64,000 bases of DNA, taken from NCBI GenBank assembly GCA_000004985.1, contig GG738868.1; one strand, given 5' to 3'. Within the stretch, counting starts at the first letter, position 1. Each line of letters starts with the position of its first letter. The translations under genes were made by a program, and so were the position numbers. The notes below the pieces were generated by a model that had not been told where the DNA came from, did not search any database, and worked only from the letters and a program-made list of their open reading frames with translations. Source of the DNA: Naegleria gruberi (lineage: Eukaryota). Below, piece after piece: positions 56,098 to 58,121 of the stretch.

Positions 56098-58121
56098 TTA
56101 TTGTACTAAACACTTCTTTGAATGAGATTTACCATAATTTTCATCTCTACTGATTGCAATTGCTTTCAATATAATTTCACTCAAATCATCAAAACCATAT
56201 CTTTTTTTTGAGCTAGTTTCAATATAAGTTATACAACCTATCTTTTTAGCCATCAACTCTCCTTCTTCAAATGTGATTGGATTTGTATCATATTTGAGAA
56301 GAAAAATTGGATCAGTGCGATAGTCAACCTTATTATTCACCAATATAATAGGTGTATCAGGACAGTGATGTCTAATTTCTGGAATCCATTTGAGTGCAAC
56401 ATTGAAAAATGAATTTTCTGCTACGCAACTAAAGCTCAGTAAGAATAGAGATGTATCTGGATAATTCTATTAATCAATTAGTCAACTGATAAGATAGGTT
56501 ATTACTTACCAATGGACGTAAACTATTGATATTGAAAAATATTGAAATATATAAAACAACCTACCAATCATAATCTAAAATCGATGAGTAGAAATAAGTA
56601 TTTTCATAACTACTTACCTTCAGGACCAGCAGTATCCCTTTCAAATGTCAATTATTCATATTGACTCAATAAAACTTACCATAGACCAATTAAATAACTC
56701 TTTCCCTCAACTCTGACACTCAAATCATAATTATCAAATATTGTTGGAATGAACTCTTCTGGATAGCTACCTGTAGCATATGTAATATATAATGATGTTT
56801 TACCAACTGATCCATCACCAACCTGAATTATCTTTTCACTTGCAGGAGGTGAATATTTTTCTAACATTTCATTCATTTGAGAGTATTGTAAAATTTCAGA
56901 TGATTTTGAATAATGTTTACCATCTAAACGTTGTGTTGCTTTTCTAATTGTCCGTATTCTTTTAGAATTCTTCTGTTCAACTTTTGACAATATGGATTGA
57001 ATTGTTTCAATTAGAATTTGTCTAAAATTTGATGTTTTAAGTAAATTTAATTCAAATAGATTTGCTTGAGAGAAATATTTTGATGCAATTTTAAATTCCT
57101 TCATCTTTTTTAAATAAAAATCTTTCCAAAATTGATCTTCACTTGTTAATTCACAAATTCTTAATGATTTGGAAACTAAATGTAATTTCATTAAATCTTG
57201 AATATTAAGAAATAATAGAATTGATCTTAAAATATCATCATTCAGATTCTTGAATAGTTCAATATTAAATGAAAATGTCAAAATGTCACAAGTCATTTGA
57301 AATCCTCCAAATATAAAATAATTAAATGAAGAATCAATGGGAATTTGAACTAAAGTGTGGAGACATGGTCTAGCTACTTCCTTATCATTGAAAATATTCG
57401 AAAGTGAATGATTTTTTTCAATTTTCCAACCTTCACTAATATTTTCCAAATCAAGACATGTACAATCTGTGAAATCTTGATTTAGATTACAACCACCAAT
57501 ACTATATAACTTATTTCCTTCCAAAACCATTGAATGTCCATATCTAGCAAAATTATCATTCAAAATAATCTCAGCTTGACATTTGACATTTCCAACATTT
57601 TCCAATGAATCAAGTGAAATCTTAATTGTATCCTTAATAATTGAATCATAATTTCTACCACCATGTATATACCACTCTCCTGTTTCATTATTTAACACGG
57701 ATGCATGATAATATCGATGTGAAATTACTTCTTGACTTGAATCAATTTCCACTCTTGTCCATTCCATATTTGTAAAATTAAATTTAAATAATTCATTTGA
57801 TGCAAAATAATTTTTACAATTATATCCACCAAATATAAATAATTGATTTTTAAAAATTACACTTGAATGACCATATAAAGGTGGAATTAATCTATCTTTG
57901 GAATTTAATTGTTTCCATGAATTATTTGTAAATTCATATATCCAAATATCATTATGAAAACTATTAATAGATTTACCTCCAAATAAAATCATTTCATTTG
58001 AATTTCTTAAATTGGTAGTATGACAATTTCTTGCACATGGAATTAATTTTTCTATTGAATGATTCGGATCAGTTAATATTGTTAAATTTCTCCATTTTTT
58101 AGTTGTAATATCAAATTTCAA
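56098..58121 (-). CDS. Kelch-repeat / F-box-like / Rho-family small GTPase fusion (exons 56680..58121, 56618..56637, 56565..56574, 56510..56522, 56098..56466)
   Basis: Continuous ORF with >=5 Kelch blades (LFGG/IFGG/IHGG/SIGG/IFGG plus W positions), then an F-box-like DDILRSILLFLNIQDLMKLHLVSKSLRI. It continues without a stop into the Rho G1-G3 region KIIQVGDGSVGKTSLYITY...FIPTIFDNY...LWDTAGPE. Four introns (42, 43, 42, 43 nt; GTAAGT/GTAGGT donors) and two micro-exons (10 and 13 nt) close phase to give ...[22 protein letters not shown]...NNKVD...TSSKK...KKCLVQ(stop). Q61 is replaced by P, the conserved switch-II Arg by Cys, and CLVQ is a CAAX box. Confidence 0.65.

Follow-up and report, generated by a model that had tools for sequence, protein, structure and literature searches.

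The 64,000-nt stretch of Naegleria gruberi DNA analysed here (contig GG738868.1 of assembly GCA_000004985.1), referred to below as the window, contains a gene whose product combines a Kelch propeller, an F-box, a Rac-like GTPase, and a CAAX box. Very probably, the switch II segment of the GTPase is encoded in pieces: the sequence supports a gene model in which four minimal introns interrupt the stretch from Trp56 to Leu70, leaving three micro-exons. The three small exons lie in a row inside 215 bp. With comparable confidence in the model as a whole, we consider the locus to be a true protein-coding gene of N. gruberi and one member of a paralogue family. Residue positions follow the numbering of Rac1, and all features of the gene are on the minus strand.

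Exon 1 (56680..58121), delimited using the listing of open reading frames (ORFs) and Pfam, is an uninterrupted ORF of 481 codons. It encodes the Kelch beta-propeller, the F-box, a linker, and the first third of the Rho domain, the last comprising the P-loop and switch I and extending through ..SYLIGL and the TG of the Trp56 codon. The last exon (56098..56466) was defined by the spliced translation, the ORF listing, and the alignment to Rac1. It begins with NYPDTSLF and specifies NKVD (G4), ETSS (G5), the Rho insert, and the CAAX box, CLVQ; the protein ends in KKCLVQ, followed by a TAA stop codon at 56098-56100. The Rho-family motifs GDGSVGKT, DTAG, NKVD, ETSS, and CLVQ were thus present. Among relatives of solved structure, Rac1, Rac3, and Cdc42 ranked best, in alignments that covered the insert region.

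Pfam analysis of the spliced product returned Kelch_KLHDC2 (E = 1.5e-49), F-box (E = 2.7e-4), and Ras (E = 1.8e-38). The F-box match, at residues 291-322, was marginal, scoring 21.2 bits against a cut-off of 20.5. The match was also kept across the orthologues, and the domain was listed by curators. The F-box domain places the product in the class of substrate receptors of SCF (Skp1-Cul1-F-box) ligases, with putative binding to Skp1 and Cul1. Pfam matched no BTB domain in the gene product at E ≤ 0.01, and the tandem BTB domains that RhoBTB has C-terminal to its Rho domain were accordingly not found. In the entry for this gene in Table S8 of Herman et al. 2021 (PMC8296547), 'BTB' is among the domains given; it was not reproduced by Pfam. 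That entry lists the gene as 'Rac' under XP_002677266.1*, a manually corrected model that starts with LKFDITTKKW, includes Kelch and F-box domains, and carries no pseudogene flag in the table. The ORF of exon 1 and the curated model share the same LKFDITTKKW start. Searches of protein collections found neither an exact protein for the gene nor one derived from its transcripts, and a search for a second Rho gene within the window found none.

The first-pass annotation, prepared from the letters of the window, had suggested looking for the same micro-exon pattern in a paralogous Rho gene. Indeed, a gene on a metagenome contig (L001) encodes a protein that is 62% identical to that of the window gene and has the same four intron positions. 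The L001 protein in turn agrees with the corrected N. gruberi model XP_002672362.1* at 395/400 positions (99%). By this match, L001 is a paralogue from a closely related strain, and the conservation reported below is therefore between paralogues. That L001 might be an orthologue from another species was rejected on the same match. A third and more distant copy, L002, shares intron 1, after which its contig ends. Further metagenome relatives were sought using a protein-profile scan and a degenerate DNA pattern that reached from exon A to exon C; none was found.

Intron 1 (56638..56679; 42 nt, GTAAGT..AAG) interrupts the Trp56 codon in phase 2 and occurs at the same position in L001 and L002. 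Micro-exon A (56618..56637; 20 nt, GGATACTGCTGGTCCTGAAG) encodes (W)DTAGPE and the first base of Asp63, and is identical to its L001 counterpart at 20/20 positions. Intron 2 (56575..56617; 43 nt, GTAAGT..TAG), in phase 1 in Asp63, separates it from micro-exon B (56565..56574; 10 nt, ATTATGATTG), which provides (D)YD and the first two bases of Cys66 and matches L001 at 9/10 positions. After intron 3 (56523..56564; 42 nt, GTAGGT..TAG), in phase 2 in codon 66, micro-exon C (56510..56522; 13 nt, TTTACGTCCATTG) supplies the last base of Cys66 and LRPL, with 12/13 positions matching. Finally, intron 4 (56467..56509; 43 nt, GTAAGT..TAG) lies in phase 0 between Leu70 and Asn71. Introns 2, 3, and 4 are each at the same position in L001, and the micro-exons of the two genes agree at 41/43 nt.

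On re-reading, the coordinates, the exon sizes (20, 10, and 13 nt), and the intron sizes (42, 43, 42, and 43 nt) given in the first-pass annotation were all correct. Its exon-intron model, its identification of a Rho domain, and its rebuilt switch II sequence were likewise supported by the spliced translation, Pfam, and the alignment to Rac1. The splice sites were described accurately as to the donors, GTAAGT in three introns and GTAGGT in one, but the YAG rule proposed for the acceptors did not hold: intron 1 ends in AAG, as it does at the same place in the paralogue, and the other three end in TAG. All four introns have GT..AG boundaries, a consensus donor, and a size typical of the genome. 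Elsewhere in the window, the candidate introns with long ORFs on both sides measure 39-61 nt; almost none were obtained from control strands. Judged by these features, the four belong to the smallest size class of introns in the genome and are unremarkable spliceosomal GT-AG introns. Most of the four contain a branch-like YTNAY motif 10-11 nt upstream of the 3' end.

The junctions were evaluated against the protein that they produce. The Pfam Ras profile covers the spliced product in a single stretch (profile positions 1-160 of 162), and the alignment to residues 6-109 of human Rac1 is gap-free through all four junctions (E = 5e-55). Exhaustive enumeration of GT..AG combinations in the region, using introns of at least 30 nt, identified 343 that close the frame. 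The earlier statement that only this combination restores the frame was therefore too strong. What survives of it is that only one combination rebuilds a complete switch II. Specifically, the region contains exactly four consensus donors, six of the 343 combinations use consensus donors only, and one of these six yields the complete segment. Scored against the family consensus, this path reached 104, and none of the other 342 GT-AG solutions exceeded 85.

One of the frame-closing paths is that of the RefSeq/JGI protein for the paralogue (P0162, 203 aa). This model omits the 10-nt exon, with the EDYDR of switch II replaced by EGK: exon A runs on for a further 4 nt to a weak donor, and the 10-nt exon is lost within a single intron of ~91 nt. 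The region of L001 matching the mis-modelled stretch is 2067-2194. An equivalent path in the window gene, in which the main mRNA skips the 10-nt exon, would use the donor GTAG at 56613 and a 91-nt intron (56523-56613) to give DTAGPEGN-LRPL, a product two residues shorter. The path closes the frame and corresponds to the reference model of the paralogue, but it would destroy the DYDR of switch II, an invariant motif present in Rac1 and in each of the orthologues. It would also pass over a perfect G/GTAAGT donor in favour of GTAGTT, and its intron exceeds the 39-61 nt typical of the window. Moreover, the 10-nt exon, with a donor and an acceptor of its own, is kept at 9/10 positions in the paralogue although the surrounding intron sequence has diverged, and the paralogue model behind the path is marked in its Table S8 entry (PMC8296547) as needing manual correction. 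We therefore regard skipping of this exon in the main mRNA as very unlikely. The micro-exon model retains DYDR, the perfect donor, the conserved exon and splice sites, and introns of the usual size, and is the better supported of the two. The paralogue is a clear case of tiny exons breaking automatic gene models in the reference genome of a protist, and studies of Naegleria's 80-plus Rho genes that relied on such models would misjudge the catalytic region.

The exon and intron positions of the window gene are kept in L001, while the intron sequences have diverged. The intron interiors of the two genes are 61% identical, which equals the background obtained for unrelated AT-rich introns using the same aligner. 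At synonymous sites, 13/13 codons of the micro-exons were identical, compared with a background of 78% (p = 0.04). Only two micro-exon nucleotides differ between the paralogues, and both belong to codon 66 (56522/56565-56566), the codon interrupted by intron 3. In a relative-rate test using the N. fowleri and N. lovaniensis proteins as the outgroup, 47 changes were unique to the window gene and 39 to its paralogue (p = 0.45). There is therefore no sign of relaxed evolution, and the window copy is unlike a long-dead gene. The layout would predate the duplication that gave rise to at least two N. gruberi paralogues, and would have been kept in both.

Several observations weigh against this account of the gene. 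The four splice junctions were deduced from the genomic sequence rather than read from transcripts. Branch motifs count for little in AT-rich introns, and a strict YTNAY is missing from intron 3. The path of the automatic paralogue model (PEGK-LRPL) closes the frame and thus may correspond to a minor isoform. The excess of synonymous identity in the micro-exons is marginal, being too weak to indicate extra constraint at the nucleotide level, and such constraint was dropped as an explanation at this p value. Two conserved residues are replaced in the window copy only, Arg66 by Cys and Ser71 by Asn, the latter in codon 56464-56466. Finally, the 5' end of the gene contains two frame disruptions, which may be assembly errors or the result of very recent pseudogenization.

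The probable original 5' end of the coding sequence (CDS) was located by alignment to the paralogue at 58122..58258, with the ATG at 58258-58256. Each of the two 1-nt disruptions is an extra T in a TTT run, one at 58247-58249 and the other near the start of exon 1, at 58113-58115. Dropping one T per run restores MTLLNLLNLPLTSCNIRIGSS..NDLIEIDITTKKW, which matches the N-terminus of the paralogue. The disruptions break the frame between the ATG and the main ORF, and the intron anatomy of switch II, some 1.4 kb downstream, is unaffected by them. The first-pass annotation had named a pseudogene as an outcome that would count against its model, and the possibility was considered that the locus is dead and that the interruptions of switch II reflect decay rather than introns. 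The disruptions near the start codon, the unusual Cys66 and Asn71, and the lack of an exact protein in the collection searched would fit such a locus. Against this, all four interruptions have a consensus donor, an AG end, and a typical intron size, and all are at the same positions in the intact paralogue. In addition, 1.85 kb of CDS remains open in sequence of ~30% GC, the G1, G3, G4, and G5 motifs and the CAAX box are intact, and no acceleration was evident in the numbers of unique changes (47 vs 39, p = 0.45). Nor did the curators attach a pseudogene flag in the table entry (PMC8296547). At most, any inactivation would be very recent and would have left the intron anatomy intact. A dead locus is improbable, and for the switch II region the scenario is unsupported.

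All four introns of the 1.86-kb CDS fall within 43 coding nt. Under uniform random placement, the chance of such clustering is ~4 x (43/1857)^3, or ~5e-5. N. gruberi is an intron-poor heterolobosean whose genes average 1.7 exons. The introns had been described as near-identical, which is correct for their length and splice-site consensus but not for their sequence. The mean pairwise identity of the four interiors was 0.62, compared with 0.58 ± 0.02 for shuffled sequences, 6% of which reached 0.62; for unrelated introns of the window (n = 11), interior identity was 0.56. The four interiors thus resemble one another no more than shuffled sequences or unrelated introns do, and the introns are not copies of a single element. 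On these pairwise identities, an origin from introners or from duplication of an intron was rejected. The clustering of several introns of nearly equal length resembles that of introner elements, but the near-identical sequence of the latter is absent here.

The orthologous genes are interrupted elsewhere in the same segment. Counted from the T of the Trp56 codon, the introns of both N. gruberi paralogues occur after nt 2, 22, 32, and 45. Those of the Willaertia magna orthologue occur after nt 8 and 21, leaving a 13-nt micro-exon of its own, TGCTGGACCTGAG, and the N. fowleri and N. lovaniensis orthologues have a single intron, after nt 38. The corresponding regions are L005 3250-3380 (W. magna), L003 3330-3425 (N. 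fowleri), and L004 3395-3560 (N. lovaniensis). Overall, there are seven intron positions in 44 coding nt (the same 16 codons), none of which is common to the three lineages. A less likely possibility is that, in the heterolobosean Kelch/F-box/Rho family, introns have repeatedly been gained, lost, or shifted by sliding within the switch II segment, making it a hotspot of intron turnover. Separate origins of the micro-exons in N. gruberi and Willaertia form part of this reading and are equally speculative. If the hotspot involved recent, site-directed gains in otherwise intron-poor genomes, the family would lend itself to work on how spliceosomal introns originate. The scattering of intron positions among close relatives may itself be of use in studies of intron turnover.

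The first-pass annotation had also proposed that such small exons need precise exon definition. This is unlikely: introns of ~39-61 nt are the norm in the window, which points to recognition across the intron and thus to pairing of splice sites across the intron. Each 42-43-nt intron would be recognized as a unit through its G/GTAAGT or G/GTAGGT donor, the branch-like motif ~10 nt from its 3' end, and its AG. An exon of 10 or 13 nt would not accommodate the upstream 3' complex and U1 on the downstream donor together. Stepwise removal of the introns is therefore expected. The four introns would be removed one after another, every removal joining a micro-exon to a longer neighbour, and the mature mRNA would encode a normal, uninterrupted switch II. 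For plant micro-exons, stepwise removal of the flanking introns has been proposed and documented (PMC8831610). The present gene indicates that a genome with minimal introns may tolerate 10-nt exons, a point relevant to the pairing of splice sites in genomes of this kind.

It had further been suggested that alternative splicing of the cluster could tune the GTPase. In this scheme, the micro-exons would form a regulated module that switches the protein between GTPase forms, or off through nonsense-mediated decay. Human Rac1b provides a precedent: a documented 57-nt in-frame cassette (exon 3b) beside switch II alters the behaviour of the GTPase. Retention of any of the four introns introduces an in-frame stop, such that retention could down-regulate the protein, and the micro-exons are unusually conserved between the paralogues (41/43 nt; 13/13 synonymous sites, p = 0.04). 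Their lengths of 20, 10, and 13 nt are not multiples of three, so any single skip shifts the frame. The sole in-frame skip (20+10 nt) deletes 10 residues, including the DxxG motif. Furthermore, no RNA structure bridging the micro-exons was predicted in either the window (z = -0.70) or L001 (z = +0.49), leaving the proposed module without a conserved structure. The conservation of the micro-exon nucleotides is explained by the fact that switch II is the most conserved peptide of the domain. The proposal is thus unsupported, and we consider a regulatory module of this kind to be extremely unlikely. Instead, the micro-exon layout is most likely constitutive and a product of intron turnover without a function of its own, where splicing, the order of intron removal, and constitutive use are what we infer from the gene. 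The finding itself reveals no new mechanism or regulatory switch.

Other genes in the window were recorded. The genes adjoining the Rho gene, at 54909-56003 (+) and 53979-54626 (-), have N-termini that look F-box-like by eye, and Pfam called no F-box in either; one of the two carries a ConA-like lectin (Laminin_G_3) domain. An ORF of 1118 codons at 58406-61762 (-) lies in a stretch of 17-27% GC and encodes low-complexity runs (Asn-rich and acidic), a PH domain, and, over a long C-terminal half, many hydrophobic residues. A gene for a RhoGEF (Dbl-homology) with short introns is located at 12056-14213 (+), ~42 kb from the Rho gene. The window further contains a PI3-kinase gene at 6618-9335 (-) and an FtsH-like ORF at 19928-21946, the product of which matches an N. 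gruberi protein at 100% identity and so identifies the source as N. gruberi or a near-identical strain.

The architecture of the gene product recurs in orthologues from N. fowleri, N. lovaniensis, and Willaertia magna, which all encode one switch II peptide that includes Pro61. The catalytic Gln61 is thus replaced by Pro in the sequence DTAGPE. As Pro61 is kept in all orthologues, it is a trait of the family and not an artefact of the splice model. Based on this residue, the gene product is an atypical Rho, probably with slow GTP hydrolysis. DTAGPE was also found in other Rho domains fused to F-box, BTB, or Kelch domains: in addition to the window gene (56618-56637), the set comprises P0002, P0003, P0007, P0006, P0009, P0171, and P0227, and spans Naegleria, Willaertia, and transcriptome and metagenome sources. 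This pattern suggests that Rho domains with slow hydrolysis form a subfamily linked to adaptors of ubiquitin ligases. Herman et al. (PMC8296547) point to GTPase-linked ubiquitination in Naegleria. The RhoBTB proteins (Ji and Rivero 2016, PMC4931677) similarly fuse a Rho-type domain to a cullin-ligase adaptor module. In contrast to RhoBTB, the window gene places its adaptor, a Kelch propeller plus an F-box of the SCF/Cul1 type, N-terminal to the GTPase; its product has a CAAX box and, by Pfam, no BTB domain.

With respect to exon structure, the window gene can be compared with several known systems; a search of the literature on Naegleria micro-exons returned nothing relevant. As in Rac1b, the feature of interest is how a Rac-type GTPase is divided into exons at switch II. 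The window gene differs in that the micro-exons encode the canonical sequence, have lengths that are not multiples of three, and show no support for alternative use. The W. magna orthologue (ABK040_012229, L005) is closer, belonging to the same family and having, in the same switch II region, the 13-nt micro-exon between two short introns; this exon is already included in the annotated protein. Its introns are at Thr58 (phase 2) and Glu62/Asp63 (phase 0), however, whereas those of the window gene are at Trp56, Asp63, codon 66, and Leu70/71. The ultra-short micro-exons of plants, of 1-15 nt (Yu et al. 2022, PMC8831610), are likewise coding exons of ≤ 15 nt that lie in conserved domains and are kept among homologues. 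Annotation routinely misses or mis-models them, and sequential removal of the flanking introns has been proposed for them as well, the exon being too short for both complexes. The plant exons are flanked by longer, detained introns, whereas those of the window gene are separated by minimal introns of 42-43 nt and occur as three consecutive small exons within 215 bp, in an intron-poor heterolobosean and as read from DNA. The window gene, already catalogued by curators, is thus a new example of a known phenomenon, the micro-exon.

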